From NCBI GenBank assembly GCA_963700145.1, contig OY969474.1, positions 32,001 to 96,000 on the forward strand: 64,000 nucleotides of DNA. Reading direction: 5' to 3'. The position numbers and the translations under genes were made by a program. Within the stretch, counting starts at the first letter, position 1; every line of letters starts with the position of its first letter. The notes under the pieces were generated by a model, which worked only from the letters and a program-made list of their open reading frames with translations, searched no databases and was not told the DNA's origin. Source of the stretch: an uncultured Acidobacteriota bacterium. Its GTDB lineage: Bacteria; Acidobacteriota; Thermoanaerobaculia; Multivoradales; UBA5704. This document shows, piece after piece, positions 13,986-41,875 of the stretch.

Positions 13986-16900
13986 ATGGCCGCCACCTTC
14001 CACTCCCGCTACCCCGGGGCGCGCTCCTTCCAGGACGATGACGTCGATCGCAAGCTCTTCCGAGGCCGCGACAGAGAAAAGGAATCTCTGCTGCACCTGG
14101 TGCTCGCCGAGGATCTCGTCGTCGTCTACGCGAAGTCGGGCATGGGAAAGACGTCGTTGCTCAACGCAGGGCTGATGGAGCCGCTGCGCGAGGAGGGGTA
14201 TCTGCCCATGAGTGTTCGTCTGAACGACCCCGCGGCGGGGCCCTTCCGGACGCTCTACGACGGCATCGCCGAAAAGGCCACCCAACAGGGAATCGAGCAC
14301 GTCTCTGGCGACGAGACCTCGCTGTGGCACTTCTTCAAGACGCTCGAGCTGTGGCGCGGCGACGATCTGCTCACGCCGGTGCTGATCCTCGATCAGTTCG
14401 AGGAACTCTTCACCCTGCAGTCGCGCGCGAACCGGCGCGCCTTCATCGACCAGCTCGCGGACCTGGTCCGCGGCAAGGTGCCTCAAGACCTCGCCGAGAG
14501 CCGCGGCCTCGAGGACGATCGCCGTTTGAGCCCCTCCGCACCCCTGATCAAGGTGGTGCTCGCGATCCGCGAGGACTTCCTCGGCAACCTGGAGGAGCTG
14601 GGTCGCAAGATTCCGAATATCTTGAATACCCGCTTCCGCCTCGGCCCGCTCAGTCGAGACGAAGCGCGGCGGGCGATCAGCGAGCCGGCGCGGGTTCTCG
14701 ACGAGCAGATCCCCACCGCGCGCTTCGACTACGAGCCCGCGGCCGTCGAGGCGATCCTCGACTTCCTCGCCGAGCGCCATCTGCAAGGGGGGGTCGACAC
14801 CACCCCCGAGATCGAACCATTCCAGCTCCAGCTCATATGCCAGCACGTCGAGTCGATCGTGGCTGCGCGCCAGGCGGCCTCCGGAGCCGTAGCGCCGATC
14901 ACTTACGACGACCTCGGGGGAGACGCTGGCATCTACGAGATGCTCAAGGGATTCTGTGACAGCCAGATCGGGGCGATCGCGGACACCTACGGCAGGCGCG
15001 CGCTTTACCGGCTATGTGAGCAGGGGTTGATCAGCCCGCACGGCCGCCGCCTGAGCCTCGAGGAGGGCGAGATCGAGCGCCGATTCCGTGTGCCCAAGGA
15101 AGCCCTGCACCACCTGGTGAACCGGCGCCTCCTCAGAGCTGAGCCGCGGCTCGGGAGTTTCTCCTACGAGCTAAGCCATGACACCTTGGTCGCGCCGATC
15201 CTCGCCTCGCGCGAGCGCCGTGCGCGGTCCCGGCGACTATGGGCAGGCGGCGCGGCCCTCGCGGCGGTGCTCGTCGTGGTCGCCGTCTTCGGCAGGCGCG
15301 GCTACGTCCATGGGCAAGAGGATGCCCTGGCCGACGACGCGCGACGGATCGGCGAGTACCTAGCGAGCGATCCCCCGCGGGCCCTCGTCCTGGCTGTGGA
15401 CGCGACCGGCCGTAGCCTCTCGCTCTACGGCGAGCCCACGCCCCAAATCTCCCTCGAATTGGCCAAGGTGGTCGAGAAGGCCCGCTTTACGCGCTCACGG
15501 ATCCTCCAGGAGATGCAGCCAACGGCCAGCGCCCTCGCCCCCGGAGGAGAGATCGCCGCGACCGGGACCGAGGATGGCAGGATCGTTCTCTACGATACCG
15601 CAGGTAACCGTCTGCGCGAGCTCGCTCCAGCCGGGGGAGGGCCGGTCACGCAACTTGCGTTCAGCCCCGGGGGCCAATGGATCGCAGCGGTGACAGGGGA
15701 GCGGCTGCGGCTCTGGAGCCGGGAGGGCCGGTCCGAAGGCCATCCCTACGCGGTCACGGGCGGCGTGCGGGCGATCGCCTTCCGCCCGGGCGACGACTGC
15801 TTGGCCGTGGCCACACCAGCGGGGCTGCGCCTTCTGGAGATCGCGAAGAAGCGGTGGAGCGGCGGGAAGCCGCAGGGCGGAATTACGCGCTTGACCTTCA
15901 GTCACGACGGCGAGCGGCTGCTCTCTTTGCATCAGGACGGCACGGCTCGCGTATGGGGCGTGCCCTCGCCGGGGGCGCTGTCCAATGCGAGCAGCGCCCT
16001 GGCGGTGATCAGCTCGCCCAATGATTGGTCGTTCGGCGGCAACCGGCGGGCCCTACTTAAGCCTGATGGGATCTGGATCGGGGACCGCGGGACCAGGCGT
16101 CTGCGCCCGCTCACAGGGATCGGCGAGAGCCCGACATCGCTGGCCCTGAGCCCCGACGGCAAGAGCATCGCTGTTGGATTGTACGCCGGCGGTTTCGAGC
16201 TGCATCGCCTCGAAAAAGAACGCAAGGCAGCGAAGGCCACTGGCAGCGCCACCCCTGCCACCGCCGGCTCCAAGGCAGTCGCGACGCGGATCTTCGAGAA
16301 GCCTCAGGGCACTGCTACGACGGCGCTGGCTCTAGATTCGACGACGGACTTCGCGGCGACCGGCGAGGCTGACGGCACGATTACGTTTTGGAACCGCACA
16401 ACCGGAGATTTCACGGCTCAGGAGAGAGCTCACGAGGGTTATATCTTCGCCCTCGCCATCGATCGCAAGGAGCACCGGCTGATCAGCGGTGGCAGCGATT
16501 GCGCAATCAGAATCTGGAGCCTCGATCGTAAGCTGTTGCGTGATCTCACGCGCAGCGGCGAGAACTGTGCAGTGATGGGTCTAGCCGTCCACCCAGGGGC
16601 GGAGTTTTTCGCCCTTGGTGACCGGGCAGGACATATCGAGACGTGGAGCTTCGACGGCCGACGCCTCTCGTCGTCCACAAGCGAGCCGGTTCTCGCCCTG
16701 GCGATAGGCCCCAAGGGCGTCGTGAGCTCGGCGCACTTCGACGGCGCAGTGCGTGAATGGTCAACCGACCAGGGCCGAGATCTCTCCCTACTCGACGAAG
16801 TTCCTGCTCCCCATCTGCTGATGACGGCCGCAACCTTTGCCCCGGATGGCGCCATCGTGCTCGGCGGTGAGGACGGCCGCTGGCGGATGGTTCCCCAGGA

Positions 16901-19900
16901 GAGCTACATGCAGGATCCGGGCGACGGTGTGATCAGGTTCGACGAGAGCGGCGAAGGGGTCAAGACGCAGGATGCCCACAAGGCGGCTGTGCAAGTCCTG
17001 GCCTTCAGCTCGGACGGCCTGAGCCTGGTTAGTGGCGACGCGGTGGGCGGCCTGCGCCTGTGGAGCGCGGAGGGTGAGCTGCTAAGTGACCCCATCCCGG
17101 GCCGGGGGTCGCCCACGACTGCCGCCGGCTTCAGCGGCGATGGCGAGAGCGTGCTGGCCCTTGCCCGTGACCTCACGCTGACAATCTGGGACCGCCACGG
17201 CATGAACCCACCGGGTGTTCCGGAGGCTCAGATCGGCGAAGGCTTTGGTCTCGCTATCGATCCTAAGGGAGCATTTTTCGCCACGATCTCTGACAGTGGC
17301 GACGGCAAGCAGTTGGCCGTATGGGATCTGCATACAGCCCGGAAGCTGAGCTGGTCTAGCGAGATCGAGCAGTGCTCGCCTGCAGGCATCGCCATCCGCC
17401 CGGACGGGTTGGGGATGGCTGTCGGCTGCGAGGACGGGCATATTGCCATGGTGGATGCTTGGTTGGACGAGCTGCCCAGCGCGTCCAAGAAGCCGGGCGC
17501 CGCCGTCCGGGCACTCGCCTTCGATCCACAAGGGCAGTACTTTGCGGCCGGCGACGACGATGGAAGGCTGGGCCTCTGGGACGCGCGAGGGAGGCCTCTC
17601 GCCGCGCCGCCATGGCCGGCGCATGCGGGTCCCGTGCTCGCGCTCGCGGTAAGCCCGGACGGCAACTGGATCGCTAGCGCCGGCGGCGAGGCGCCACCCG
17701 CCGGCGCTGGAGCGGTCCGCAAGGACGACTCCAACGTCAAATTGTGGAACCGTTGGAAACCGGGCGAGGTCGTTTGGCCACGTCCCTGGAATGTTCTCTC
17801 CAGCCACCCGCGTCGCGGCATCAACTCCTTGGCCTTTAGCCCCGACGGTAGAACCCTAATCACCGGCGGGGATGACGGGATGGTCCGCTTCTGGAACGTC
17901 GAGGACGGCACGGAGCAGCAGATCCTGGAGACCCAGGGAGGTCGCGTCGCCTCGGTCGCCTTCAGCCCCGACGGTACGCAAATCCTCACCGCGGGCTTCG
18001 ACGGCAACCTCCGGCTCTGGGATCTTCAGCGTAATCTGCTCGCGCTGGCCCTCCCCATCCGCGCCAATGCCGGGCCTGGAGAGGAGTTAGCCGTTCAGGC
18101 GGCCTTTGCCCCCGGGGGAGACCTCCTCGTCAGTAGCGCGGCGCAGGGGAGGTCACTGCTCCGGCGAGGGAGCTGGCGCGGGTGGCTGCAGGTCGCCTGC
18201 CATCGCCTGCGCCGCGATGATGGCTGGCGCCGTCCCAGCCTACCCGGCGAGCGCAAGGCCCGAGAAACCTGCGAGCGGTGGGCTGGGCCCGACGACGATC
18301 CATGGAGCGGGCTGGCATCCGCCGGACAGGCACCGCCGGGCTCCACGCCCCTCCATCGGGCTGTCGTGATGGGGGTTGTGGGAGACGTGACGTCTCTGCT
18401 CCTCGAGGGGCAGGACCCCAACGTCCGCGATGCAGCGGCCCGGACGCCGCTCGCCCTTGCGGTTGCGGCGGGCCGTGCCGAGGCGGCCCGGGCGCTCCTC
18501 GCCAACCACGCGGATCCCAGGCTCGGGGACGGCTTCGGCGACACCCCCCTCCACCAGGCCGCCGCCCGCGGTGACTCGATGGTGATCGACCTCCTCCTTC
18601 GCGGCGGGGCCGCGCCGGGCGCACGCAACCGCTACGGCGTGACGCCCCTCATGAACTCGGCCCATCGCGGCCATGCGGCCGCTGCCCGGGCGTTGCTCGA
18701 CAAGGGGGCTCCGGTCGACACGGCGGATGACGGAGGAAACACCGCCTTGATGGACGCTGCCAGAAATGGCCATCTGGATCTTGTGGAGCTATTGATCGCG
18801 CGAGGAGCCGACATCAACCGGGAGAATCGGACTCCGGCGCGGATGACCGCCCTGCGCTGGGCGAGGTACGGAGGACATTCCGGCGTTGTCGATTTCCTCC
18901 AAGCGAAAAGTCTGCGCGTCAGCGAAGACCTGCCCACGGCCGTCCAGCGCATCCACCTGGCGCGCTATGCTCCCGCCCACCTGCGGCCGGCTGCCGCGAC
19001 GCTGGGGCGCTGGTGGACACCGATCCGGAACGAAGTCAGCATGCGGACTTTCCGCTCGGTCCGCGCGATCGCCGAGCAAGGCGACAGCTTTGCGCAGTTC
19101 CTGGTGGGTTACGCCTTGGCGCGGGGGCTAGGAGTCGGCCGCGATCCGGACGCCGCCCTGATTTGGTACCGCCGATCGGCCGAACAGGGCGACCCGCTCG
19201 GCCAAGCCGCGCTCGGGATGGCCTACTGGACGGCCGAAGGTCCGCGTACGCGGCAGGACATGCAACAGGCCCTGCTCTGGAACCAACGATCCGCGGCGCA
19301 GGGTCATCCCGTGGGCCACTGGAACCTCGGCAACATGTACAGCCAGGGTATCGGGGTCGAGAACTCCTCCGGGACCGGCGCCCTCTGTTCTTACCTAGAG
19401 GCCGCCCGCGCGCAACTCGCAGACCTTGTTTGCAGCCCCCCAGTTCCGGCCCAACGCCAATGGGCGCGCGCCGATCCCGCCGCGATCAATTCCGTCGGCT
19501 GGAGTCTCGACAACGGTGCGGGTTACAGAGAGGACTCGCAAGCTGCTTTCGCCTACTTCCGGCGGGCCGCTAGCCAAGGGGACCTGGTCGCCCAGCGCAA
19601 TATCGGCTCGATGTGGCTCTATGGAAGGGCTGTCCCGAGATCTCTCGCGCAAGCCCACGTGTGGCTGCGGCGGGCGGCCGACCAGGGGCACGGCGGTGCC
19701 ATGTCTCTCCTAGGCCATAGCTACCTCTATGGCTTAGGGGTCCCGGCCTCTGCCGTCGAGGCCCTGAGTTGGTACAGACGGGGCGGCGAGGCCGGCAATC
19801 GTTCGTCTCAGCGCCAGACAGGTTGGATGCTGGAGCGCGGCCTCGGGGAGGAGCGGTCGCTGGTCGCCGCCGTGGGCTGGTACCGAAGAGCCGCCGCGCA

Positions 19901-19952
19901 AGGCAGTATTCCCGCCACCCAGAGACTCGAGAGTCTGGGGATAAAGCCGTGA
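13986..19952 (+). CDS. nSTAND1-type NTPase - TM helix - WD40 - ankyrin - Sel1 repeat protein (NLR-like), 1988 aa
   Basis: YPGARSF...FRGRDRE, Walker A YAKSGMGKTSLLNAG, Walker B LILDQFEELF, YELSHDTL, TM LWAGGAALAAVLVVVAVFG, many AFSPDG..WD repeats, TPLHxA/TALMDAA ankyrins, and A..WYRRSAEQG Sel1 repeats. Confidence 0.92.
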   Translation: MAATFHSRYPGARSFQDDDVDRKLFRGRDREKESLLHLVLAEDLVVVYAKSGMGKTSLLNAGLMEPLREEGYLPMSVRLNDPAAGPFRTLYDGIAEKATQQGIEHVSGDETSLWHFFKTLELWRGDDLLTPVLILDQFEELFTLQSRANRRAFIDQLADLVRGKVPQDLAESRGLEDDRRLSPSAPLIKVVLAIREDFLGNLEELGRKIPNILNTRFRLGPLSRDEARRAISEPARVLDEQIPTARFDYEPAAVEAILDFLAERHLQGGVDTTPEIEPFQLQLICQHVESIVAARQAASGAVAPITYDDLGGDAGIYEMLKGFCDSQIGAIADTYGRRALYRLCEQGLISPHGRRLSLEEGEIERRFRVPKEALHHLVNRRLLRAEPRLGSFSYELSHDTLVAPILASRERRARSRRLWAGGAALAAVLVVVAVFGRRGYVHGQEDALADDARRIGEYLASDPPRALVLAVDATGRSLSLYGEPTPQISLELAKVVEKARFTRSRILQEMQPTASALAPGGEIAATGTEDGRIVLYDTAGNRLRELAPAGGGPVTQLAFSPGGQWIAAVTGERLRLWSREGRSEGHPYAVTGGVRAIAFRPGDDCLAVATPAGLRLLEIAKKRWSGGKPQGGITRLTFSHDGERLLSLHQDGTARVWGVPSPGALSNASSALAVISSPNDWSFGGNRRALLKPDGIWIGDRGTRRLRPLTGIGESPTSLALSPDGKSIAVGLYAGGFELHRLEKERKAAKATGSATPATAGSKAVATRIFEKPQGTATTALALDSTTDFAATGEADGTITFWNRTTGDFTAQERAHEGYIFALAIDRKEHRLISGGSDCAIRIWSLDRKLLRDLTRSGENCAVMGLAVHPGAEFFALGDRAGHIETWSFDGRRLSSSTSEPVLALAIGPKGVVSSAHFDGAVREWSTDQGRDLSLLDEVPAPHLLMTAATFAPDGAIVLGGEDGRWRMVPQESYMQDPGDGVIRFDESGEGVKTQDAHKAAVQVLAFSSDGLSLVSGDAVGGLRLWSAEGELLSDPIPGRGSPTTAAGFSGDGESVLALARDLTLTIWDRHGMNPPGVPEAQIGEGFGLAIDPKGAFFATISDSGDGKQLAVWDLHTARKLSWSSEIEQCSPAGIAIRPDGLGMAVGCEDGHIAMVDAWLDELPSASKKPGAAVRALAFDPQGQYFAAGDDDGRLGLWDARGRPLAAPPWPAHAGPVLALAVSPDGNWIASAGGEAPPAGAGAVRKDDSNVKLWNRWKPGEVVWPRPWNVLSSHPRRGINSLAFSPDGRTLITGGDDGMVRFWNVEDGTEQQILETQGGRVASVAFSPDGTQILTAGFDGNLRLWDLQRNLLALALPIRANAGPGEELAVQAAFAPGGDLLVSSAAQGRSLLRRGSWRGWLQVACHRLRRDDGWRRPSLPGERKARETCERWAGPDDDPWSGLASAGQAPPGSTPLHRAVVMGVVGDVTSLLLEGQDPNVRDAAARTPLALAVAAGRAEAARALLANHADPRLGDGFGDTPLHQAAARGDSMVIDLLLRGGAAPGARNRYGVTPLMNSAHRGHAAAARALLDKGAPVDTADDGGNTALMDAARNGHLDLVELLIARGADINRENRTPARMTALRWARYGGHSGVVDFLQAKSLRVSEDLPTAVQRIHLARYAPAHLRPAAATLGRWWTPIRNEVSMRTFRSVRAIAEQGDSFAQFLVGYALARGLGVGRDPDAALIWYRRSAEQGDPLGQAALGMAYWTAEGPRTRQDMQQALLWNQRSAAQGHPVGHWNLGNMYSQGIGVENSSGTGALCSYLEAARAQLADLVCSPPVPAQRQWARADPAAINSVGWSLDNGAGYREDSQAAFAYFRRAASQGDLVAQRNIGSMWLYGRAVPRSLAQAHVWLRRAADQGHGGAMSLLGHSYLYGLGVPASAVEALSWYRRGGEAGNRSSQRQTGWMLERGLGEERSLVAAVGWYRRAAAQGSIPATQRLESLGIKP

Positions 19953-20092: not shown

Positions 20093-22168
20093 ATGCAGGA
20101 CCTCGAAGCCCGCGTCAAAGCGGCGGTTGCCAAGATCGAAGGCCGCGATCCCAAGCTGGCCGATGAGCTGAACGAGCTCCGCGGGAGTGCGAAGACCAAG
20201 AAGGAAGCCAGGGCCCTGGCGCCGGCGATGGCCCTGCGGGGGCTCGCACTGGAGGGGGCGGCTCCCAGGCCGGCGGTCGCGCTCGAAACGATCGTGCTGC
20301 GGGTCGGCCGCCCGGTGCTGGCGGTCGTCCGCGACGAGGCCCTCCTCGAGTTCCAGGACGCGGAGAGCGAGATCTGGCGGCAGCGGCTGACCGACGCGCG
20401 CGACCGCCTGGTGCCGGCCATCAAGGCGGTCGGCCGCATCGAGGTGGAGAACCATCCACGGTTCGAATGGCTCGGGACCGGATGGCTGGTCGCCGACGAC
20501 GTCGTGGTGACGAACCGGCACGTGGCGCGCGAGTTCGGCCGCGGCAGCGGCTCCGGCTTCGTCTTCCGGCCGGGCCGGGCCAACCGGCGGATGACCGCGT
20601 CGATCGATTTCCTGGAGGAGTTCGACCGCCCCGAGAGCCTGGAGTTCCGCCTGCGGCGCATCCTGCACATCGAGGGCGACGGCGGACCCGACGTGGCGCT
20701 GCTCCAGGTCGAGCCGGTTGCGGGAAGGGGCCTGGCGGCGCCGATCAGGCTCGGCGTCCGGAGAGGCGCGGGAGGAGCAGCAGGTGGCCGTGATCGGCTA
20801 TCCGGCGAAGGACAGCCGGATCCCGGACCAGCAGCTCATGCAGGACATCTTCGGCGACGTCTTCGACAAGAAGCGGCTGGCGCCGGGCCAGATCACCGGC
20901 AGCGCGGGCCACGAGCTCGCTGCACGACTGCTCGACGCTCGGCGGCAACTCCGGCTCGGTGGTGCTCGACCTCGAGACCGGCGAGGCGCTCGGTCTCCAC
21001 TTCGCCGGCCGCTTCCTGGAGGCGAACTTCGCGGTGCCCGCCGCGCTCGTCGCGGAGCGGCTGCGGCGGCTCGGCCGCGAGGGTGCGCGCCCCGCCGCGG
21101 CGCGCCCGCCGGCCGGCGCGCGCGGCACTCTCCAGTCGCGCTCCGGCGGCGCCACGGCCTCCGTCGACGACGATCAGCCTACACGATCCCGGTCCGGGTC
21201 ACGGTGGACATCGGCGCTCCGGTCGCCGGCGAGCCGGCCGGGCGCGCAGGGCACGCCACCCGGCGCTCCTCGCGCCGACCCCTGCCGACGTGGGCGACGA
21301 CGAGGACGAGATCCTCCTCGACGTCGAGGCGCGGCCGGAGGACTACGCAGACCGGCCCGGCTACACGGCCGGGCTTCCTCGGCTACGGGTTCGAGGTCGC
21401 CGCTGCCGGCGCTGGGCGCGGAGCTGGAGAGCGACCTGCTCACCTTCGAGGTCGACGGGGAGACGGAGAGCGAGCTCCGCTACCAGCACTTCTCGGTCGT
21501 CATGAGTCAGAGCCGGCGCCTCTGTCTCTACAGCGCGGTGAACATCGACGGCGACCAGTCGCGGAAGGTGAAGCGCACCGGATGGCGGCTGGACCCGCGG
21601 ATCGCCCAAGGAGGCGCAGATCCTCCGCGAGTGCTACGGCAACGCGCCCAAGTTCAGCCGCGGCCACATGACGCGGCGCGAGGACCCGATCTGGGGCTCC
21701 GCAGGGGACGCCAAGCTCGGCAACGCCGACTCCATGCACGTCACCAACGCCGTGCCGCAGATGCAGGTCGTTCAATGCCGGCATCTGGCTCGGCCTCGAG
21801 GACTACGCCCTCGACAACGCGCGCGAGGACGACATGCGGATCTCGGTGTTCACGGGACCGTTCCTGCGCGACGACGACCCGGTCCGCTTCGGCGTCCAGG
21901 TCCCGCGCGACGTTCTGGAAGGTCATCGCGTTCGTCCACGACGAGACGGGCGAGCTCTCCGCCACGGGCTACACGATGTCGCAGGACGACTTCCTGCGCG
22001 AGGAGGAGTTCGTCTTCGGCCAGCACGAGACGTCGCAGGTGCCGATCGTCGCTGATCGAGCAGCGGACCGGGCTGTCGTTCGGCGACCTCGCCTCCCGCG
22101 ATCCGCTCGGCGAGGTGGAGGAGGCCCTGCCGGCGCCGCTGACGGATTTCCGGCAGATTCGGTTCTAG
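20093..22168 (+). CDS. Trypsin-like serine protease fused to NucA/EndoG-type non-specific endonuclease (frameshifted in this assembly)
   Basis: RBS AGGAGG. Protease triad TNRHVA / PDVALL / HDCSTLGGNSGS. Nuclease part: LRYQHFSVVMSQSRRLCLYSAVNIDG, WRLDPRI, FSRGHMTRREDP, TNAVPQ..FNAGIWLGLEDY, VFTGP, FWKVI, IEQRTGLSF. The pieces lie in different frames. Confidence 0.85.
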
Positions 22169-22197
22169 GTAGTTCTACCTTCAAGGGAGGTCTCTCC

Positions 22198-23130
22198 ATG
22201 CCTCATGTCACGTTCGTCCACGGCATCGCCAATAAACCCCCGACGGACAAGCTGCTGGACCTCTGGCGGCGCAGCCTGGCGGAGTCCGACGGCCCCGACC
22301 TCGGCAGCGAAGGGGTCACCAGCTCGATGGTCTACTGGGCGGACGTGTTGTACGCCGAGCCGCTCAAGGAGGGCATGGAGGAGAGCGCCACGGACGAGTC
22401 CACGGTCGAGGCCGTGTCGCCCGAGTCCCCGGACCTCGGCGTCGAGAACATGGACGCCGCGGAGCAGCTCTGGGTGGCCGAGCTCGCGGTCAAGCTGGCC
22501 GTCCCGCTCGCCGCCGAGGAGGCGGTCGAGGCCCTGCCCACGCCCGTGCGCGAACAGCTCGAGCGCATCCCCCTGCCCTGGCCGGTCAAGGAGCGGCTCA
22601 TGCGGCGCCTCCTGCGGGACGTCCACCACTACCTCTTCAACGTCGACTACAGCCCACGGCCGGGAGAGACCTTCAAGGTGCAGGACGAGATCCGCGGGCG
22701 GATGATCAAGGCGTTGCAGGAGGGCGCGACCATGCCCGGCCCCCACGTCGTGATCAGCCACAGCATGGGCACGGTGATCGCCTACGACTGCCTGAAGCGA
22801 GTCGGCGACGCACCCGTGGTGGACGGTCTGATGACCATCGGCAGCCCGCTCGGAATCGACGAGGTCCAGGACAAGCTGCGGCCGGAGTGGAGCCGGGACA
22901 ACGGCTTCCCGCACGAGAAGGTCCGCGGCAAGTGGATCAACGTCTACGACCGTCTCGATCCGGTGGCCGGCTTCGATCCGAGCTTCGCCAACGACTACCG
23001 GCGCGGCGGCCAGAGGACGGTCGAGGACGTCAACGAGCAGAACTCCGGCTCGTGGCGCCACAACGTCAGCAAGTACCTGAGCGGGGCGCAGCTCCGGGCA
23101 CGCGTGCGCGAGATGCTGGGCTTGGAGTGA
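22198..23130 (+). CDS. Alpha/beta-hydrolase (lipase-like)
   Basis: RBS AGGGAGG. MPHVTFVHGI, nucleophile elbow ISHSMGTVIAYD, MTIGSPLG, WINVYDRLDPV, C-terminal His (WRHNVSKY). Confidence 0.85.
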   Translation: MPHVTFVHGIANKPPTDKLLDLWRRSLAESDGPDLGSEGVTSSMVYWADVLYAEPLKEGMEESATDESTVEAVSPESPDLGVENMDAAEQLWVAELAVKLAVPLAAEEAVEALPTPVREQLERIPLPWPVKERLMRRLLRDVHHYLFNVDYSPRPGETFKVQDEIRGRMIKALQEGATMPGPHVVISHSMGTVIAYDCLKRVGDAPVVDGLMTIGSPLGIDEVQDKLRPEWSRDNGFPHEKVRGKWINVYDRLDPVAGFDPSFANDYRRGGQRTVEDVNEQNSGSWRHNVSKYLSGAQLRARVREMLGLE

Positions 23131-23136
23131 ACGACG

Positions 23137-24786
23137 ATGGACACGCCCTGGAACGAGGACGAGTTCCTGACCGAGCTGACCGCGGTCGTCGAGCGCTTCA
23201 ACCGCGACGGCGCGGCCAAGCTGTGCAATGAGCTGATCGCCGCGCTGCATCAGGGAGCGCTGCCGAGCGCCAAGGCGGCGAAGAAGATCCTCCAGGTCTT
23301 GCGCCGCAAATGCCACTTCGACCTGATGGAGCGGGTGACGGAGGCCCTCCGCCTCGTCGGGCTCGACGAGAACCAGATCCGCCGCCAATACGCCCAGTCG
23401 CTCATCGACCAGGGGAAGGCCGCGGCGGCCATCGACGTCCTGGAGTCGCTGATGGCGCGGACGGAAGGGAAGGACCCGGCAGAGCACGCGGAGGCGCGCG
23501 GCCTGCTCGGCCGCGTCTACAAGCAGCTCTACGTCAATGCGGTCAACGCCGACCCCGAAGCCAGGCGCTCGCGGCTGAGCCAGCTCAACCTGCAGCGGGC
23601 GGTGAACGCCTACCACGAGGTCTACCTGTCGGGCCCGGCCGATCACCTGTGGCACGGCATCAACACGGTGGCGCTGGTCTTCCGCGCGCGGAGGGACGGC
23701 GTGCAGCTCGATCCGGAGCCGGACGCCGAGACGATCGCCCGGGAGATCCTGGCGGCGCTCGAGGCGCGCAAGGAGCAGGGGGCGATCGGCTACTGGGACA
23801 TGGCCACGGCGGCGGAGGCGAGCGTGGCGCTCGCGGATTTCGGCAAGGCGCTGCTCTGGGTCGCGGAATACGTGCAGCAGGCCGACGCCGACGCCTTCGA
23901 GCTGTCGAGCACCGAACGCCAGCTGCGGGAGGTCTGGGGGCTGACCGTCGAGAAGCCGCCCGGCTCTCTCCTCCTCCCGTTGCTCCAGGCCCACATCCTT
24001 CAGCGCAAGGGCGGCCGGGTCGAGGTGCCGCAAGGGAGCCTGGGCGCGACGATAGAGCGCGCCGGCGACCTACGGCTGGAGAAGGTCCTCGGCAGCGAGG
24101 GATTCATGACCCTGAAGGCGTACCGGGAGGGGCTGGAGCGCTGCCGGCTCGTCGCGCAGGTGAAGACGCGGACGGACGAGGGCTTCGGCACCGGGTTCCT
24201 GATCCGCGGCAAGGACCTCGACGATCGGTTCGGCGACGAGCTTCTCGTGCTGACCAATGCCCACGTGGTCAGCGATGATCCGGCCGTCCGGGCCGCCAAG
24301 GGCTCGCTGCCGGCCGAAGATGCCGTCGTCGTGTTCGAAGCCCTGGAGTCGGCCGCCGATCAGGAGTATCAGGTCTCGCTCCTGTGGTCCTCTCCTCCCG
24401 ACGAGCTGGATGCGACGCTGCTGCGGATCGATCCGCCGATCACCGGCCTGACGCCCTATCCGGTCGCGAAGAACCTCCCGCTGGGTGACGGCAAGCAGAA
24501 GGTCTACGTCATCGGCCATCCCGGCGGTCGTTCGCTCTCCCTCTCGCTCAACGACAACCTGCTGCTCGACTACGACGACCGGCTGCTGCACTACCGTGCT
24601 CCCACCGAAGGGGGCAGCTCGGGAAGCCCGGTCTTCAACAACCAGTGGAAACTGATCGGTCTCCACCACGCCGGAGGCTTCGGCCTGCAGCGCTTGAACG
24701 GCAAGGAGGGGACCTACGACGCCAACGAGGGCATCCAGATCCAGAAGATCATCGTCGCGATAAAAGAGGCGGCGATCGGCGGCTGA
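23137..24786 (+). CDS. TPR-S/DUF4071 (MAP3K TRAF-binding-like) domain + trypsin-like serine protease
   Basis: N-part: ARGLLGRVYKQ, AVNAY, WHGINTVAL, YWDMATAAEA, ELSSTERQLR. C-part: GTGFLI, TNAHVV, LDATLL, IGHPGG, TEGGSSGSPVFN, LIGLHHAG. Confidence 0.88.
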   Translation: MDTPWNEDEFLTELTAVVERFNRDGAAKLCNELIAALHQGALPSAKAAKKILQVLRRKCHFDLMERVTEALRLVGLDENQIRRQYAQSLIDQGKAAAAIDVLESLMARTEGKDPAEHAEARGLLGRVYKQLYVNAVNADPEARRSRLSQLNLQRAVNAYHEVYLSGPADHLWHGINTVALVFRARRDGVQLDPEPDAETIAREILAALEARKEQGAIGYWDMATAAEASVALADFGKALLWVAEYVQQADADAFELSSTERQLREVWGLTVEKPPGSLLLPLLQAHILQRKGGRVEVPQGSLGATIERAGDLRLEKVLGSEGFMTLKAYREGLERCRLVAQVKTRTDEGFGTGFLIRGKDLDDRFGDELLVLTNAHVVSDDPAVRAAKGSLPAEDAVVVFEALESAADQEYQVSLLWSSPPDELDATLLRIDPPITGLTPYPVAKNLPLGDGKQKVYVIGHPGGRSLSLSLNDNLLLDYDDRLLHYRAPTEGGSSGSPVFNNQWKLIGLHHAGGFGLQRLNGKEGTYDANEGIQIQKIIVAIKEAAIGG

Positions 24787-24793
24787 GCCCGGG

Positions 24794-26136
24794 TCACTTC
24801 GGCCAGCCGGCCAGCTCCTCCTCGGCCTCCTTGGCCCACGGCACCTCGTCGCCTCGCCTCTCCCGCGCCTCGCGGATGAGGCGCAGGTTGCGTACCGTGG
24901 TCTCCGGCTCCCAGGTCTCGCGGACGTTGGCCAGCGCGTCGCCCAGGGCCTGGACGGCCTTCTCCTCGTCCTTGCCCAGGACCGCCAGCTCGAGGCGCGT
25001 CGCGTAGTCCCAGTAGTCGGGCTGGCCGGCGGCGATCTTCCGCTCGACGGCGTAGGCGACGACGGGGAGGAGCTCTCCGCGGCGGGGGTCGGGCGGCTCC
25101 TTGAGCTCCATCAGGGTGACGGCGTTGATGCCGGGGTAGGCGTCGCGCCAGTCGGCCTCGAAGCCCTTCCGATAGGCGTCGATCGCCTTGTCGAGCAGGC
25201 CGCGGGCGGCGATCGCCTTGCCGGCCTTCGCGGCGGCCTCCCAGCGGTCCTTGTAGACGCGGCCGAGGATGCCGTAGGTCTCGCTGCTCGGGCCGCGCGT
25301 CGCGATCAGGTCGAGCAGCGACCTGCTCCGCCTCCTCGCCCCGCCCGGCCCGGTTCAGGGCCAGGCCGAGCTGCTCCTGGACCATGACGGTCACGGCGAG
25401 CGGCTGCGGCATCTGCTCGACGAGCTCGATCATGTCGTCCCAGGCCTTGACCGCCCGGTAGGAGAGGAGGAGGTCGACGACGACGCCCGACTCGACGCTC
25501 GTCAGGTCCCCCATCTCCGCTTCGGCGGCGCGCAGCGGCCTCGGCGCCCTCTCGCGCGCGCGGCGGCGAGCTTCCTCTTCTGCTCCTCGGAGTAGCGGAC
25601 GCGCTCGCGGAAGACATCGGTCTTCGTGTGATCGATGTCGGGATAGCTCTCGACGAGCTGATAGATCGGGCTGTCGTGCGCGGCGTCCTTGCTCGCCGCC
25701 TCGCGGGCCTGGGCGAGGCGCTCGGCGAGCGCCGCGCGCGCGGCCTCCAGGTCCGCGGGCTTCCCCTCGGCGTCAGCGTGTAGGGCATGGCGCGCAGGGG
25801 AGCGACGTCGAAGGGGAGCTGGCTGCCGCCCTCGGAGAAGATCAGGACGGTGCTCCAGGGGCGCACCGCGTGGCGCACGCCCAGTTCGTAGAAGACGTTG
25901 GCGTTCGCCGTCGTCAGGTCGGCCACCGCGAACTTGCAGAAGATCAGCCGCTCGAACATCGGCTTGTGGATGATGCCGCCGGTCATCTCCTCGTCGGCGC
26001 GGATCGGCTCGAGCCCGGCCTCGCGGATCGCCGGTGCGATCAGCTCCTGGTAGACGGCGTCGAAGTCCACCGGCGCGCCGGACACGTCGGGTTTCTTGCC
26101 GAACGGCATGAGGACGAAACAGAGGTCGTTGGGCAT
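24794..26136 (-). CDS. Nucleoside-deoxyribosyltransferase/deoxyribohydrolase-like domain + TPR-S/DUF4071 domain (frameshifted in this assembly)
   Basis: From ATG 26136: MPNDLCFVLMPFG...IRADEE...AVADLTTANANVFYELGVRHA...LPFDV. Later SETYGILGRVYKD, AIDAYRKGF, YPGINAVTL, YWDYATRLELAV, WEPETTVRNLRLI. Confidence 0.85.
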
Positions 26137-26171
26137 GTGTGAGATCCCCGGCGTGTCCGCGGCTCCGCGCT

Positions 26172-27518
26172 TTACTCCACCTTCCTCGCCTCGGTGGCGA
26201 GGTGGCTCTGGCGCAGGACGAGGTGCGTCACCGCTCCGCCTGCGCCCTTGACGAACGCAAGCTCGCTGTCCGGGTCGCGGGTGAAGAACGTGGACTCGGA
26301 CGCGGCAAAGAGCTCCCGGCGCGGGCCGCTTCCCGTCTGCGCCCAGAGCTTGCCGTCCTCGCGGGAGACCACGAGCCGGACGTTCGGCCTCAGCTCGTAG
26401 CTGCCGACGTAGGCGTCGAAGGCCTCGGGGGCGATCGGCACGGCGGTGTGCTCGACGGGCGCGAGCTCGGGGTCGTAGAGGGCGGCGACGCCGTTGGTGA
26501 TGGCGGCCGGGTCGGCCTGCGCCAGGTTGGTGAGCACGATGACGGTCAGCTTCTTGTCGACGAAGCGCACGATGTCGGCGGCGAAGCCTTGCCAGCCGCC
26601 GCCGTGCCGCACGACGCGGTGGCCGCGGACCTCGCCCACCATCCAGCCGAAGCCGTAGCCGAACGACGCGGGGCTGCCGTCGGCGAGCCTGGCCGGCGTC
26701 CAGGTCAGGTCGAGCGTGGCGCGGTCGAGGAGCTTCTCTGTGTAGAGCCCGGCGTCCCACCGCGCGAGGTCGAGCACGGTCAGGTAGAGCGCGCCGTCGG
26801 CGGTCGTGTTGAGCACCGGGGAGACCCACTCCTGGTTCTTGAGCTCGCCGTCGACGAGCCGGTAGCCGGCGGCGCGGTTGGGCACGATGGCGGCCTCGTC
26901 GATGATGCGCGCGGTCGCCATGCCGAGCGGCGCGAAGACCCGCTCGCGGAGGAGGTCGCCGTAGAACTTGCCGGTCACCCTGCGCACGAGGACTCCGAGC
27001 ATCACGTAGCCCGGGTTGCTGTAGCTCCACCGCGTGCCGGGCGCGAAATCGAGCGGCAGCGCCGCGATCTCCTTGACCAGCTCGTCCTCGGTGTAGTCCC
27101 GGCGCATGTCGAGCTCGTCGTAGAGCGCGTTCGAGAGGCCCGAGGTGTGCGTCAGCAGGTGGCGCACCGTGATGTCGCGCCAGGTTTCCGGCGCCTCGGC
27201 GACGTGCTTGCCGATGCGGTCGTCGAGGCTCAGCTTGCCGTCCTCGACGAGCATCATCACGAGCGCGGCCGTGAACTGCTTGCCGACCGATCCGGACTGA
27301 TAGATCGTTTCCGGACGCGCCGGAACGCCGAGCTCGACGTTCGCGAGTCCGTAGCCTTGGGCCTTGACGACCCCTCCGTCGCGCACGACGGCAAGCGAGA
27401 GGCCGGGGATCTTCTGGCGCTGCATCTCGGCCGCGACGAAGGCGTCGACCTCCGCGGCGGCCGCCGGCGCCGTCAGCGCGGCGAGGAGGAGGGGAACCAG
27501 GGCTCGTGGGTTCCTCAT
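26172..27518 (-). CDS. Serine hydrolase (beta-lactamase/AmpC-like family) with C-terminal DUF3471-like domain
   Basis: Signal peptide, SVGK (SxxK), LLTHTSG, YSN, HGGG. Confidence 0.9.
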
Positions 27519-27574
27519 CGCGGCGGATTGTAACTTCGAGCTAAGCTTCTATCTCATTCTCTAAGGAGAGGCTC

Positions 27575-28819
27575 ATGCGCGATCGTCGTTTCCCGTCGTC
27601 GTCGTCATCCGTCTCCGCCGTCTTCGCCGTTGCCGCGCTGTTGTTCGCCGCCACCTCGGCCGCCGCCTCCGGGCCTTACTCGGTCACGGCGACAAGCACG
27701 AGCCAGGTCGGCCCTCTCGTCCGGACCGAGTTTCTCGTGCAGGCCGGCGCCCATCCCCTGGACCGCTTCAAGATGGTCCGGCTGGCGAAGGACGTGCCGC
27801 CGCACGTGCTCGCCGGCTCGATCCTCTTCCTGCCGCCGCTCGGCCTCACCTTTAGCTTCTACGAGCAGCGCGACGAGTCCGGCGGGATGGGAAGCTCGAT
27901 CGCCGAGTTCTTCGCCCTGCGCAACTTCGACGTCTACGGCTACTCGCCTCGCTTCGCGGACATCCCGGCCGGCACCTGCGAGGCCGGTCTGCTCGACTGC
28001 TCGGTGATGGCGGACTGGAACCTCCAGTCGATGGTGGACGACATCGCCTTCGTCCGCGCGCAGATCGAGCAGCTCCATCCGGGGACGAAGATCGTCGCCG
28101 GCGGCGCTTCGCTCGGCGGCATCCTCGCCCTCGCCGTCGCCAACGCCCAGCCCGCCGACTACGACGGCATCCTGCCCTGGGAGGGGATGCTGGCGAGCCC
28201 CGACCCGGTGGTGCAGGGGCTCAACCAGCTCTACTGCGCCGCGCTCGAGGTGCAGATCGCCGGCGGCGGCGTGGTGGACGGCGTCTCGACCAACGTCTTC
28301 AAGGCGGTGACCAAGCAGGCGGAGCTGGCGCCTTCGGGGTCGAACGCCATTCCGCTCTTCCCCTCCACCCTGACCGCCCATCAGGTGATGGTGCTGCTGC
28401 TCGCCGTCACCGCGCCCGGGCCGGTCACCATGCCGGTGCCCAACTACGTGCAGATGAACGGCAGCTTCGCCGAGGACCGCCTGTTCTTCGCCGACGAGGC
28501 GCGGGTGTTCGAGAACGTCGGCCGCTTCAACAGCTACGTGCCGGTGCCGGTGGTGCGCGACGTCTCGTGCTCGCTGGCCGGCGTGGAGACCGCCTACGTC
28601 TCCAACCTCGGCAGCTACACCGGCTCGGTCCTCGCCATCGGCGGCGGCCGAGGCTTCGGCCCGTTCATGGCCGCGCAGCTCGCGATGCTCGGCTCGACCG
28701 ACGTCACCTTCCTCCTCGAGCCGGAGTTCGGCCACATCGACCACTTCATGACCGCCCGGCACCGGGAGTTCGTCGAGCACCCGATCCTCGCCTGGGCGGG
28801 GCGGGTGCTCCAGGAGTGA
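27575..28819 (+). CDS. Secreted alpha/beta-fold hydrolase
   Basis: RBS AAGGAG, signal peptide, GASLGG nucleophile elbow, C-terminal FGHID. Confidence 0.8.
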   Translation: MRDRRFPSSSSSVSAVFAVAALLFAATSAAASGPYSVTATSTSQVGPLVRTEFLVQAGAHPLDRFKMVRLAKDVPPHVLAGSILFLPPLGLTFSFYEQRDESGGMGSSIAEFFALRNFDVYGYSPRFADIPAGTCEAGLLDCSVMADWNLQSMVDDIAFVRAQIEQLHPGTKIVAGGASLGGILALAVANAQPADYDGILPWEGMLASPDPVVQGLNQLYCAALEVQIAGGGVVDGVSTNVFKAVTKQAELAPSGSNAIPLFPSTLTAHQVMVLLLAVTAPGPVTMPVPNYVQMNGSFAEDRLFFADEARVFENVGRFNSYVPVPVVRDVSCSLAGVETAYVSNLGSYTGSVLAIGGGRGFGPFMAAQLAMLGSTDVTFLLEPEFGHIDHFMTARHREFVEHPILAWAGRVLQE

Positions 28820-28841
28820 CCTCGCGGGGGCACGCGCCTGC

Positions 28842-28870
28842 TTGACCAGGCCATACGGCAGAGCCATACT
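28842..28870 (+). promoter_or_regulatory. Putative promoter for a leaderless vapBC transcript
   Basis: TTGACC (28842-28847), 17 nt, CATACT (28865-28870); ATG 28878 follows after 7 nt with no SD. GCCATAC is repeated within the promoter (possible operator). Confidence 0.55.
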
Positions 28871-28877
28871 CATGCAT

Positions 28878-29093
28878 ATGAGAACGACCCTGATCCTCGA
28901 CGACGAGCTGCTCGACAAGGCGAGCCGGCTGGCCGGCCTCGCGGGGAAGACCGCGACGGTCCACGCCGGGCTGGAGGCGTTGATCGCGCGCGAGAGCGCT
29001 CGGCGGCTGGCCGCGCTCGGCGGCACGGAGAAGGCCCTGCGCCCCATCCGCCGCCGGCGGCCCGCGCCGCGCCGGCCGGCGGCGAAGCGGTGA
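28878..29093 (+). CDS. vapB: VapB antitoxin
   Basis: MRTTLILDDELLDKASRLAGLAGKTATVHAGLEALIARESARRLAALGGT; GTGA overlap with vapC. Confidence 0.88.
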   Translation: MRTTLILDDELLDKASRLAGLAGKTATVHAGLEALIARESARRLAALGGTEKALRPIRRRRPAPRRPAAKR

Positions 29094-29461
29094 TTCTCGT
29101 CGACACCTCGGTGTGGGTCGATCACCTGCGCAACGGCAGCCCGCGCCTGGCGGCGCTGCTCGCCGAGGGCCAGGTGCTAAGGCACCCCTTCGTGCTCGGC
29201 GAGCTGGCCCTCGGCCACCTCCGGCGCCGCCGCGAGGTCCTGGCGCTCCTGGCCGACCTGCCCGCGGCCGGCGCCGCCGACCACGACGAGGTGCTCGCCT
29301 TTGTCGAGCGCCACGCCCTCGCCGGCGGCGGGATCGGCTGGGTCGACGCCCACTTGCTCGCCGCCGCGGCCCTCGGCGGCGATTCGCTGTGGACCCTCGA
29401 TCGGCGCCTGGCGGCGCTGAGCGAGAAGCTGGGCGTGGCGGCCGGGCACGGCCGCCACTAG
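29090..29461 (+). CDS. vapC: VapC PIN-domain toxin
   Basis: MILVDTSVWVDHL...VLGELALG...IGWVDAHLLA...LWTLDRRL. Confidence 0.92.
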   Translation: MILVDTSVWVDHLRNGSPRLAALLAEGQVLRHPFVLGELALGHLRRRREVLALLADLPAAGAADHDEVLAFVERHALAGGGIGWVDAHLLAAAALGGDSLWTLDRRLAALSEKLGVAAGHGRH

Positions 29462-30467: not shown

Positions 30468-30983
30468 ATGGCCCGCTCGGCTCCGTCGCATCTCTCCCTC
30501 ACCGCCGCCACCCCCGACGACGTCCCGGCGATCGCTGCGCTGCGGACGGCGGTCGCCGAGCGGCTGACGCGCGAGTACGGCCCGGGACACTGGTCGCCCG
30601 CGGTGTCCGAGCGGGGCGTCCTCCACGGGATGCGCACGTCGCGGGTGCTCGTGGCGCGGGACGGCGGGCGCATCGTCGCCGCGCTGCGGCTGGCGACGAA
30701 GAAGCCGTGGGCCATCGACCCGACGTACTTCACCGCCTGCGGGCGGGCGCTCTACCTGACCGACATGGCGGTCGCGCCGGACGTGCAGCGCCGCGGGATC
30801 GGGCGCCGCTGTCTCGAGGAGGCCCGCCGGCTGGCGCGCGAGTGGCCGGCCGGTGCGATCCGGCTCGACGCCTACGACGCGCCCGCCGGCGCCGGCGGCT
30901 TTTACGCGCGCTGCGGCTTCCGCGAGGTCGGGCGCGTCACGTACCGCAAGACGCTGTTGATCTACTACGAGCTGCTCGTGTAG
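30468..30983 (+). CDS. GNAT acetyltransferase
   Basis: YLTDMAVAPDVQRRGIGRR and FYARCGFREVG. Confidence 0.9.
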   Translation: MARSAPSHLSLTAATPDDVPAIAALRTAVAERLTREYGPGHWSPAVSERGVLHGMRTSRVLVARDGGRIVAALRLATKKPWAIDPTYFTACGRALYLTDMAVAPDVQRRGIGRRCLEEARRLAREWPAGAIRLDAYDAPAGAGGFYARCGFREVGRVTYRKTLLIYYELLV

Positions 30984-31477: not shown

Positions 31478-31520
31478 CGCGGCGGAGTGTAGACGAGGCG
31501 CGACGCGCCCTGAGCGCCGA

Positions 31521-37048: not shown

Positions 37049-37115
37049 ACCCGCTCGGGCCTCGTGCTATGAACCGGCCACGTTCCCGCCTCACCTCCCG
37101 GACAGGAGGTCTCCG

Positions 37116-37626
<511 letters not shown>

Positions 37627-37637
37627 GGGGAGGGACC

Positions 37638-40022: not shown

Positions 40023-40026
40023 GGCC

Positions 40027-40894: not shown

Positions 40895-40968
40895 CTGGTC
40901 GCGTCGGCCGCGGCTGGTCGTAACCGCGGGCCGGCGTAGCCTCGCTGTCGCCTCGCTACAATGCCCCG

Positions 40969-41865: not shown

Positions 41866-41875
41866 GCGCGGCGCG

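Follow-up and report, generated by a model that had tools for sequence, protein, structure and literature searches.

A TPR-S-trypsin protease and its upstream lipase-like hydrolase as the conserved core of a putative conflict island in an uncultured Acidobacteriota bacterium

Which genes belong together in a locus that combines two trypsin-like proteases, a nuclease, a lipase-like hydrolase and two relatives of the eukaryotic kinase ASK1's N-terminal region? We addressed this question computationally for the genome of an uncultured soil bacterium of the Acidobacteriota (GenBank assembly GCA_963700145.1), in a stretch of 64,000 nucleotides (nt), here called the window, that covers positions 32001 to 96000 of the single 5.46-Mb contig OY969474.1 and has a guanine-plus-cytosine (GC) content of about 70%. 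The original prediction, made from the letters alone, had read four adjacent genes as one immunity system, in which gene 4 switches on the protease of gene 3, which in turn releases the nuclease of gene 1 and/or the lipase-like product of gene 2 (LIP). Our analysis instead identifies LIP and gene 3, the TPR-S-trypsin fusion, as the unit under selection. The features concerned, in window coordinates, are the following:

20093 to 22168, plus strand: gene 1, a fusion of trypsin-like protease, linker and NucA nuclease (Endonuclease_NS), with about nine frame breaks; assigned by Pfam on its pieces.
22198 to 23130, plus strand: gene 2 (LIP), a lipase-like alpha/beta hydrolase of 310 amino acids (aa), intact; assigned by an alignment of 38 homologues, an AlphaFold2 (AF2) model and fold searches.
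22384 to 22560, plus strand: the variable, acidic, disordered insert of LIP (residues 63 to 121), delimited by model confidence and alignment; a proposed protease-cleaved gate.
23137 to 24786, plus strand: gene 3, TPR-S (an ASK1-like TPR sensor) fused to a serine protease of the V8 family with a trypsin fold, 549 aa, intact; assigned by Pfam and by profile matches in the Protein Data Bank (PDB).
24794 to 26136, minus strand: gene 4, a DRHyd/TIR-like N-glycosidase domain followed by TPR-S, with about three frame breaks; assigned by high-scoring segment pairs (HSPs) with homologues.

The evidence for a two-gene unit comes from related loci. Our locus set comprises the best 80 of 358 confirmed gene-3 relatives from a scan of one genome per species; it spans at least nine phylum-level groups, including Acidobacteriota, Bacteroidota, Pseudomonadota, Actinomycetota, Verrucomicrobiota, Planctomycetota and Gemmatimonadota (taxa as recorded), and gene presence was scored by tblastn with intact queries at a coverage of at least 0.5. 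LIP was found in 53 of these 80 loci and lies directly upstream of the TPR-S-trypsin gene, on the same strand, in 52 (52 of the 77 with enough upstream DNA). Read in the other direction, a close LIP homologue occurs in only 2 of 400 phylum-sampled genomes (G122, 54% identity; G205, 50%), and in both it precedes a gene-3 homologue, by 24 and 98 nt, respectively; three of the 400 have weak LIP-like matches, with the protease gene absent. Because of this two-way synteny, the unit is LIP plus TPR-S-trypsin, with trypsin-NucA and DRHyd-TPR-S facultative. Trypsin-NucA is present in 5 of the 80 loci, as the immediate neighbor of the TPR-S-trypsin gene in 4 of those 5, and DRHyd-TPR-S lies within 8 kb in 15. 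The four genes occur together in none of the 80 loci, nor do LIP, trypsin-NucA and DRHyd-TPR-S, so that the predicted four-gene arrangement is not a conserved unit; and since DRHyd-TPR-S accompanies the core in only 15 loci, gene 4 cannot be the obligatory switch that it had been taken for.

The position upstream of the protease gene is open to exchange. A muramidase with GH108 and PG_binding_3 domains is found in 19 of the 80 loci, just upstream of LIP in 16 and in place of LIP in 2. Where LIP is lacking, the slot directly upstream is occupied by trypsin-NucA (L041, L052), plain NucA (L071, L083), the GH108 muramidase (L068, L075), an Amidase_2 protein (L013, L018, L023), DRHyd-TPR-S (L033) or an unknown protein (L058). 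Fusions of TPR-S to other enzymes may also be stacked beside the core: a TPR-S-patatin accompanies LIP and TPR-S-trypsin in three loci (L008:7140-9830, L066:3292-6267 and L075:4362-7328), and in L008 the row reads LIP, TPR-S-trypsin, DRHyd-TPR-S, TPR-S-patatin, that is, three TPR-S fusions in succession.

Both core proteins are intact in their catalytic residues. Gene 3 matches the Pfam families Trypsin_2 (80.6 bits; cut-off, 27.6), TPR-S (PF20308; 53.6 bits; cut-off, 27.6) and MAP3K_TRAF_bd (PF13281; 35.6 bits; cut-off, 24.1), all above the curated thresholds. Its catalytic triad, His376, Asp425 and Ser495 (the last in a GSSGS motif), is invariant in 22 homologues. Profile searches of the PDB returned SplB, V8 and glutamyl endopeptidases for the protease part and ASK1 (5ulm, E 1.3e-3) for the TPR-S part. 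The best alignments of the protease are to glutamyl endopeptidases and Spl proteases of staphylococci with solved structures, and in them Thr490, five residues before the catalytic serine, and His510 (IGIH) pair with residues of the S-T-x-G-G and G-I-H motifs of the solved glutamyl endopeptidases. A threonine and a histidine beside the catalytic serine are what we take to be the residues that give V8 protease its specificity for glutamate. At least 2,755 of 8,000 scored candidates are relatives of gene 3, and among the 120 relatives listed, all but one carry Trypsin_2 and, likewise, all but one carry TPR-S. One 917-aa relative (P0086) additionally has a CbiA/ParA-like NTPase domain (PF01656); in the available part of a preprint from 2026 that deals with immune roles of ParA-like NTPases, trypsin is mentioned only as a rare effector.

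LIP has a single Pfam match, to Abhydrolase_6, which at 21.2 bits stays below the cut-off, yet the alignment of 38 homologues holds the invariant residues of a hydrolase of this kind: His8-Gly9, Ser189 (in SHSMG), Asp251/Asp254 and His288. Its AF2 model, with a predicted local distance difference test (pLDDT) score of 81, matches minimal lipases, YdeN and the DDHD domain of Nir2 in Foldseek. VIA-align placed lysosomal phospholipase A2 on top (4x90; Z 13.3; root mean square deviation [rmsd] 3.5; 186 residues aligned), with many esterases tied, and the neighbors in the ESM Atlas are PGAP1, LCAT and Lipase_3 clusters at 0.95. A search of PDB sequences with the LIP profile gave nothing below E 0.6, and PHROGs held no match. 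The insert is bounded by Glu62 and Glu122, both invariant in the 38 sequences. It varies from 58 to 79 aa, is 21% acidic against 6% basic, has a column identity of 0.41 compared to 0.68 elsewhere in the protein, and is disordered in the model, with a pLDDT below 50 at residues 67 to 79 and 110 to 117.

The wider annotation agreed with the original prediction in most respects. The coordinates and spacing of the four genes were reproduced (spacers of 29 nt after gene 1 and 6 nt after gene 2, with 7 nt separating the convergent stops of genes 3 and 4), Pfam on the genes or their pieces bore out the domain calls, and every quoted motif was found in the translations, including the TPR motifs LGRVYK, AxxAY, GINxVxL, YWDxATxxE and ExxxTxRxLR, which genes 3 and 4 share in the same order. 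As had been noted, no signal peptide is visible in the N-termini when these are read by eye. NCBIfam has no name for any core protein, and a promoter and terminator scan of the locus gave nothing beyond shuffled sequence (no promoters; terminator-like sites numbered 2, where 1.8 were expected).

Gene 4 links the locus to ASK1. Its pieces match MAP3K_TRAF_bd at 55.6 bits and TPR-S at 25.9 bits, the latter on a fragment and just under the cut-off, and the intact homologue in L008 matches the two families at 180.4 and 100.5 bits. The pieces (frames -3, -2, -1 and -2) are colinear with this homologue (L008:5711-7051; 61 to 78% identity); when the pieces are placed by way of the family alignment, the identities are 73% and 69%. 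Alignment and model show a Rossmann-like alpha/beta N-terminal domain followed by an all-helical region; the motifs CFVLMPF and NANVFYELG are both present, and the putative active-site motif N78-A79-N80...E84 is nearly invariant in 22 sequences. The PADLOC model of a TIR effector also matches gene 4 (3e-7). The suggested paralogy of the TPR-S regions of genes 3 and 4 was confirmed by a match of the intact gene-4 homologue to gene 3 at E 8e-10, and the suggested kinship with ASK kinases by structure: the model of the L008 homologue, 69 to 78% identical to gene 4, matches ASK1 8qgy over both domains (E 9.4e-10, 428 columns, 18% identity) and ASK1 5ulm (E 1e-6, TM score 0.47/0.55, rmsd 4.0). The family is very large, with at least 7,991 proteins at E of 1e-5 or better among 8,000 scored. 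DRHyd-TPR-S proteins of about 446 aa are 70 to 84% identical across Acidobacteriota, Nitrospirota and Desulfobacterota, which is unusually conserved for a protein of putative immune function.

Gene 1, in spite of its broken frame, retains all its catalytic motifs (TNRHV, DVALLQV and GGNSGS, SRGH, TNAVPQ). Its pieces reach 34 bits for Endonuclease_NS, above the cut-off, and 23.2 bits for Trypsin_2, below the cut-off and on a fragment; they are colinear, in alternating frames and at 54 to 86% identity per piece, with an intact homologue of 694 aa (L038:477-2561), which scores 67.3 bits for its trypsin domain and 144.1 bits for Endonuclease_NS. Intact homologues measure 594 to 774 aa and have a linker of about 120 residues; the linker of gene 1 itself is put at 100 residues. 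The protease region of the L038 homologue matches a PADLOC model labeled "nacht" (1.1e-17), and we considered whether gene 1 is tied mainly to the nSTAND1 gene upstream of it; this idea was dropped as the main reading, since genes of its type abut TPR-S-trypsin in 4 of the 5 other loci that have them.

The original prediction implied frameshifts in this locus, and these are genuine features of the record. A plot of GC content at third codon positions (GC3) and ungapped, homologue-guided HSPs agree on about nine frame changes in gene 1, about three in gene 4 (near 25326-45, 25547-59 and 25741-71) and none in genes 2 and 3; gapped tblastn is unfit for this purpose, as it passes through the breaks with spurious in-frame stops and as all frames of DNA with 70% GC look alike. 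The phase series in gene 1 runs 2, 0, 1, three shifts in the linker, then 1, 2, 0, 1, 2, so that all of its roughly nine shifts are +1. The nSTAND1 gene is likewise free of breaks; together with genes 2 and 3 it makes up 8.6 kb. Soil-metagenome contigs from related strains, assembled from runs that belong to different studies and about 95 to 99% identical (0 to 35 differences over 106 to 592 bases among the pieces listed), omit one base at 21277, 21378, 21398, 21604, 21911 and 22048 in gene 1 and at 25318 and 25536-25555 in gene 4. Two independent sequencing runs (X1 and X5) concur at 21398, 21604, 21911 and 25318, and the remaining sites (21277, 21378, 22048 and 25536-25555) are covered by a single run. 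Depths are low (2.3 to 6.3), four breaks have no row among the contig rows listed, and stretches without contig cover are uninformative. Because the contigs omit the extra base at most of the break sites, intact alleles exist in nature. A screen of public sequencing runs with words from the locus found none that held half of them or more (best share, 0.17). Across the genome as a whole, apparent shifts, a proxy count, form about nine dense patches, among them those at 1.52, 3.48 and 2.40 Mb, whereas the median is 2 per 20 kb. The last 7.8 kb of the contig (G000:C1:5447965-5455767) is a colinear copy, 85 to 100% identical, of window segments between 26163 and 45230 (26163-29000, 30947-31505, 43781-44442 and 45026-45230), from which the stretch at 31.5 to 43.8 kb is absent, as it is in the same-genus genome G004. 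This copy has the appearance of two strain variants overlapping at the ends of the contig, which means that strains were mixed in this part of the assembly. One of the nine or so patches of apparent shifts lies at 36007 to 43127 of the window, on the plus strand, where switches in the +1 and in the -1 direction are densely packed.

We consider it quite likely that the breaks are consensus errors. That the dozen or so breaks are real, with genes 1 and 4 pseudogenes in this strain and the core pair alone surviving, is a doubtful alternative: the breaks do keep to two accessory genes and spare the pair that is also conserved in other genomes, yet nine shifts in a single direction, pieces that lack in-frame stops and still resemble a distant homologue at 54 to 86% identity, the missing base in independent runs at the low depths given above, the nine patches of the same kind and the strain mixture all argue against decay.

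The core lies in an island larger than the four genes originally described. The segment from 12.5 to 26.16 kb of the window (13.7 kb) is unmatched in four same-genus genomes, in which both flanks match at 80 to 96%; gene 3 is found in none of these four, and a full-length relative is present in 1 of 30 relatives. Directly upstream of gene 1 and on the same strand, the island holds two further genes, separated from each other by 2 nt and from gene 1 by 140 nt:

12697 to 13983, plus strand: a SIR2-like plus TIR fusion of 428 aa, the first gene of the island (Pfam TIR_2, 5.7e-21, 75.7 bits; SIR2_2, 1.4e-15, 58.1 bits).
13986 to 19952, plus strand: an NTPase of the nSTAND1 type that also carries WD40 propellers and repeats of the ankyrin and Sel1 kinds, 1,988 aa, intact (Pfam nSTAND1, 1.2e-34, residues 9 to 402; WD40, 2.1e-63; Ank_2, 6.6e-30; Sel1, 1e-36).

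The claimed conflict-system setting was borne out by a census of 275 flanking proteins, two on each side of the unit, each with a length of 110 aa or more and untruncated by the end of its contig. By Pfam, TIR_2 (21) and TPR-S (20) lead the counts, followed by Glyco_hydro_108 (17), PG_binding_3 (17), MAP3K_TRAF_bd (at least 10), Amidase_2 (5) and Endonuclease_NS (at least 5), with patatin, caspase, LSDAT_prok, Phage_lysozyme, Muramidase and WD40/STAND proteins also present. A hidden Markov model built iteratively from three TIR seeds detected TIR-like proteins in 27 of the 80 loci (19 of the 48 with full flanks), and either TIR or DRHyd-TPR-S was found in 34 of the 80 (25 of the 48). As a rough, one-genome control, the 28 TIR-like open reading frames of the 5.46-Mb source genome correspond to a chance of about 9% per 17.6 kb. 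In one locus, a single TIR-nSTAND1-WD40 protein of 1,455 aa (L072:2632-6999) lies directly upstream of LIP and TPR-S-trypsin; it is the fused counterpart of the SIR2-TIR and nSTAND1 genes of the window and mirrors their order. The GH108 neighbor matches a phage endolysin family (phrog_315, 3.2e-49), and PADLOC-DB v2.0.0 has no family for the TPR-S-patatin, GH108 and Amidase_2 neighbors. Three recurrent neighbor families are without a match in Pfam, NCBIfam and PADLOC (typified by L013:9733-10692, L047:5342-6286 and L020:9209-10903): one, of about 320 aa, occurs in 8 loci, mostly of Bacteroidota, where its gene sits shortly downstream of that of the protease in convergent orientation; the other two, of about 250 to 314 aa and about 564 aa, occur in 5 loci each. 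Outside the island, two overlapping small open reading frames of 83 and 123 aa at 28842 to 29461 of the window resemble, by eye, a VapB-type antitoxin and a PIN-domain VapC toxin.

How might such a core work? Our reading, to which we give about even credence, is that the locus lies in a strain-specific conflict island (defense or programmed death) built on a two-gene core of sensor-protease and pro-effector. Gene 3 would be a cytoplasmic sensor-protease whose ASK1-like TPR-S region receives a trigger, most likely an NAD-derived nucleotide from a TIR or DRHyd enzyme encoded nearby, for which the SIR2-TIR protein and gene 4 are the candidates in the window. An NAD-derived trigger is probable because TIR and DRHyd proteins are the commonest neighbors, because BcTpr, to which we return below, is described as making an isomer of cyclic ADP-ribose (cADPR), and because TPR-S has been proposed as a sensor of such signals. 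The trigger would switch on the V8-family protease, which may then cut the disordered acidic insert of LIP between Glu62 and Glu122 and so release an active lipase- or phospholipase-like enzyme that damages the membrane. In the window, trypsin-NucA, with its linker, could be a second substrate or an executioner; at other loci, peptidoglycan hydrolases, patatin or plain NucA would be the attached effectors. The predicted outcome is abortive infection through destruction of membrane, wall and DNA. The pairing of protease and pro-effector is proposed by analogy with the HamM/HamA and Avs pairs, as far as these are described in the source cited below. The predicted complex of LIP and TPR-S-trypsin lends weak support: it scored 0.37 (runs of 0.01, 0.37 and 0.50) with the best of three controls at 0.00. 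The mark for such scores is one that 58 of 80 solved complexes attain, as do 2 of 110 mismatched pairs; with a score of at most 0.60, only 7 of the 80 attain it, and so do both mismatches.

Several observations weigh against this reading. The three runs of the complex prediction disagree (they share at least 0% of contacts, with partner pLDDT of at least 81). The fold match of LIP is generic, about 170 to 190 of its 310 residues being aligned and dozens of esterases, thioesterases and lipases lying within one Z unit, so that the label "lipase" is only a lead. In PADLOC-DB v2.0.0, LIP matches no family and gene 3 only trypsin-domain models, at E 3.6e-7 or weaker, and our literature searches found no experiment on the LIP plus TPR-S-trypsin cassette. 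For 46 of the 80 loci, among them 23 of those 48 that have full flanks, the available sequence contains neither TIR nor DRHyd-TPR-S; a nucleotide trigger encoded nearby is therefore not general, and other triggers may serve. Peptidoglycan hydrolases that carry no visible export signal are odd effectors in a cytoplasm, and clustering of defense genes has causes besides common function. Finally, if the frame breaks were real, only the core pair would work in this genome.

Among the alternative readings, mere co-location is a possibility of some weight. The island would then hold four independent systems: an Avs-like pair of SIR2-TIR and nSTAND1, a self-contained trypsin-NucA gene of the "System 3" kind, LIP with TPR-S-trypsin, and DRHyd-TPR-S as a stand-alone, BcTpr-like NADase. 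This would fit the absence of the full four-gene set from all 80 loci, the opposite strand of gene 4, the "nacht" match of the gene 1 protease with an nSTAND1 gene just upstream, the size of the DRHyd-TPR-S family (at least 7,991 proteins), which far outnumbers its pairings with gene 3, and the 29 of 78 operons in which, according to the available part of the BcTir/Tpr preprint, the core stands alone. It fits less well with gene-1-type proteins as immediate neighbors of TPR-S-trypsin in 4 of the 5 loci where they occur, with frequencies of DRHyd-TPR-S (15 of 80) and TIR (27 of 80) well over the rough background of 9%, with the stacking of TPR-S fusions seen in L008, and with L072, in which the order of the window recurs upstream of the same core.

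Two further alternatives concern the role of the core pair itself. Protease and hydrolase might be side-by-side co-effectors, or the hydrolase might regulate the protease, in the manner of the obligatory dyads of alpha/beta hydrolase and caspase in VMAP ternary systems; the weakly predicted complex is silent on which protein acts on which. We regard this as improbable, because the upstream slot also takes an unrelated nuclease, muramidase or amidase, which suits interchangeable substrates or effectors better than a fixed cofactor, and because the disordered, variable insert of LIP resembles the one reported to be cleaved in the pro-nuclease of Tuck et al. (Science 2025; PMC12799240). It is still harder to credit that the lipase, muramidase, amidase and nuclease make up a set of lytic weapons exported for use against other bacteria, in antagonism or predation, with TPR-S-trypsin as a maturation protease or chaperone. 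Like secreted antibacterial effectors, the neighboring enzymes do act on envelope and DNA, and the GH108 neighbor matches a phage endolysin family; yet the N-termini show no signal peptides to the eye, families of secretion systems or immunity genes are missing from the commonest census entries, TIR, TPR-S, STAND, caspase and LSDAT, typical of intracellular conflict systems, dominate instead, and the cassette also occurs in records of Actinomycetota. We retain the sensor-protease and pro-effector reading. Of the original prediction, the domains, the paralogy, the ASK link, the conflict setting and the protease logic are kept, and the four-gene unit and the obligatory role of gene 4 are given up.

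If the sensor-protease reading holds, the principle by which a sensor-fused protease unmasks a pro-effector would extend from nucleases to a membrane-targeting hydrolase and to the TPR-S class of sensors, and the compact two-gene system, with its many relatives across many phyla, would lend itself to a direct search for the TPR-S ligand. Such a ligand would matter beyond bacteria: TPR-S and DRHyd together are the bacterial counterpart of the N-terminal region of ASK1, whose sensed signal is debated, a 2026 paper arguing genetically, in the part available, for cADPR upstream of Ask1/JNK (PMC13455253), and a ligand for bacterial TPR-S would make the question of ASK1 sensing testable. In a bolder form, which we think unlikely, the locus would be a bacterial forerunner of the ASK signalosome that acts as an apoptotic protease cascade. 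A STAND sensor would activate a TIR or DRHyd enzyme, whose NAD-derived nucleotide would be read by TPR-S; TPR-S-trypsin, as a Glu-specific initiator protease, would ungate the pro-phospholipase and free NucA from the executioner protease-nuclease, with death by destruction of membrane, wall and DNA. By homology, this cascade would suggest that the TPR region of ASK1 in animals has a cADPR-like ligand.

How does this locus compare with known systems? The core proteins match no model of a known antiphage system in PADLOC-DB v2.0.0, and literature searches found no description of LIP with TPR-S-trypsin, although supplementary neighborhood tables may already list the pair. Burroughs and Aravind (J Bacteriol, 2020) are said to have treated TPR-S and DRHyd-TPR proteins as "core Tpr" systems and to have predicted TPR-S as a sensor of NAD-derived signals. 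The statement that no experimental description exists stands, within the reach of our searches, for the arrangement as a whole; it does not extend to the architecture of gene 4, which was tested in a 2023 preprint on BcTir/Tpr of Bacillus cereus (10.1101/2023.05.26.542521). There, as far as the available text goes, an isomer of cADPR is produced by a glycosidase-TPR protein of DRHyd-like type, which acts in defense jointly with a TIR partner. Compared by this description, BcTpr (residues 1 to 189, MilB/NDT-like glycosidase; 190 to 415, TPR; catalytic N80, P81, N82 and E86) and gene 4 both have an N-glycosidase of this type of about 190 aa ahead of TPR, and they share an N-x-N-x3-E motif at almost identical positions (N78/N80/E84 in gene 4), with Ala79 in place of the proline. 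TIR genes are frequent neighbors in both cases, and patatin and caspase partners recur. In the window, by contrast, gene 4 is flanked by gene 3 and a gene of the Beta-lactamase family, and the TIR domain is SIR2-fused and lies at a distance of 10.8 kb. For its 78 operons, 29 with the core alone, the preprint names TIR, YspA, patatin, LSDAT, calcineurin, caspase and OB partners and, in the available text, no trypsin or lipase-like one.

The idea that a sensor protease switches on neighboring effectors has an experimental precedent in the available text of Tuck et al. (PMC12799240) and a prediction for trypsin plus NucA in that of Kaur et al. (2020). Tuck et al. describe pairs of a gated pro-nuclease and a trypsin-fused sensor in Hachiman, AVAST, Lamassu and DRT, in which the pro-nuclease gene lies immediately upstream and excision of disordered gating insertions activates the nuclease (HamM/HamA, Avs). 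Like these pairs, which recur in unrelated contexts and end in cell death or arrest, a course that we propose by analogy for the present core, LIP and TPR-S-trypsin include an effector with a disordered insertion. They differ in that the effector is an alpha/beta hydrolase rather than a nuclease of the MBL fold, that the protease is C-terminal to TPR-S rather than N-terminal to HamA, Avs or LmuA, and that the proposed P1 residue is Glu, compared to Ile in HamM. Because the upstream gene encodes an alpha/beta hydrolase and not an MBL-fold pro-nuclease, the locus would be a functional analogue of these systems and not a member. For "System 3," Kaur et al. predicted a proteolytic cascade that deploys NucA in trypsin plus NucA operons with lysozyme-like effectors and STAND NTPases. 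Our locus shares the fusion of trypsin and NucA (gene 1), a second trypsin paralogue in the operon (gene 3), and lysozyme-type effectors and a STAND NTPase nearby. System 3 is, in the available text, mostly alphaproteobacterial, with EAD1 or bDLD2 adaptors in a subset, and Pfam at E below 0.01 finds only Trypsin, Trypsin_2 and Endonuclease_NS in the L038 homologue, with no such adaptor; here, moreover, the second trypsin is fused to TPR-S, and the dominant partner is a lipase-like hydrolase, which is absent from the section on System 3.

Caspase-like proteases activated by TIR signals act in phage defense, according to the available part of PMC13455253. In those systems a TIR-made, NAD-derived nucleotide switches on a cell-killing protease, as may happen here by analogy, with a different sensor domain and a different protease fold. 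The N-terminal region of ASK1 (MAP3K5), comprising the thioredoxin-binding domain and the TPR-containing central regulatory region, resembles the gene-4 family over both domains; the bacterial proteins lack the kinase, have a protease (gene 3) or nothing (gene 4) as the output domain, and retain the glycosidase-like N-x-N...E motif in the N-terminal domain. The parts of this locus are of known or predicted kinds, namely, TPR-S systems, System 3 and protease-gated effectors.

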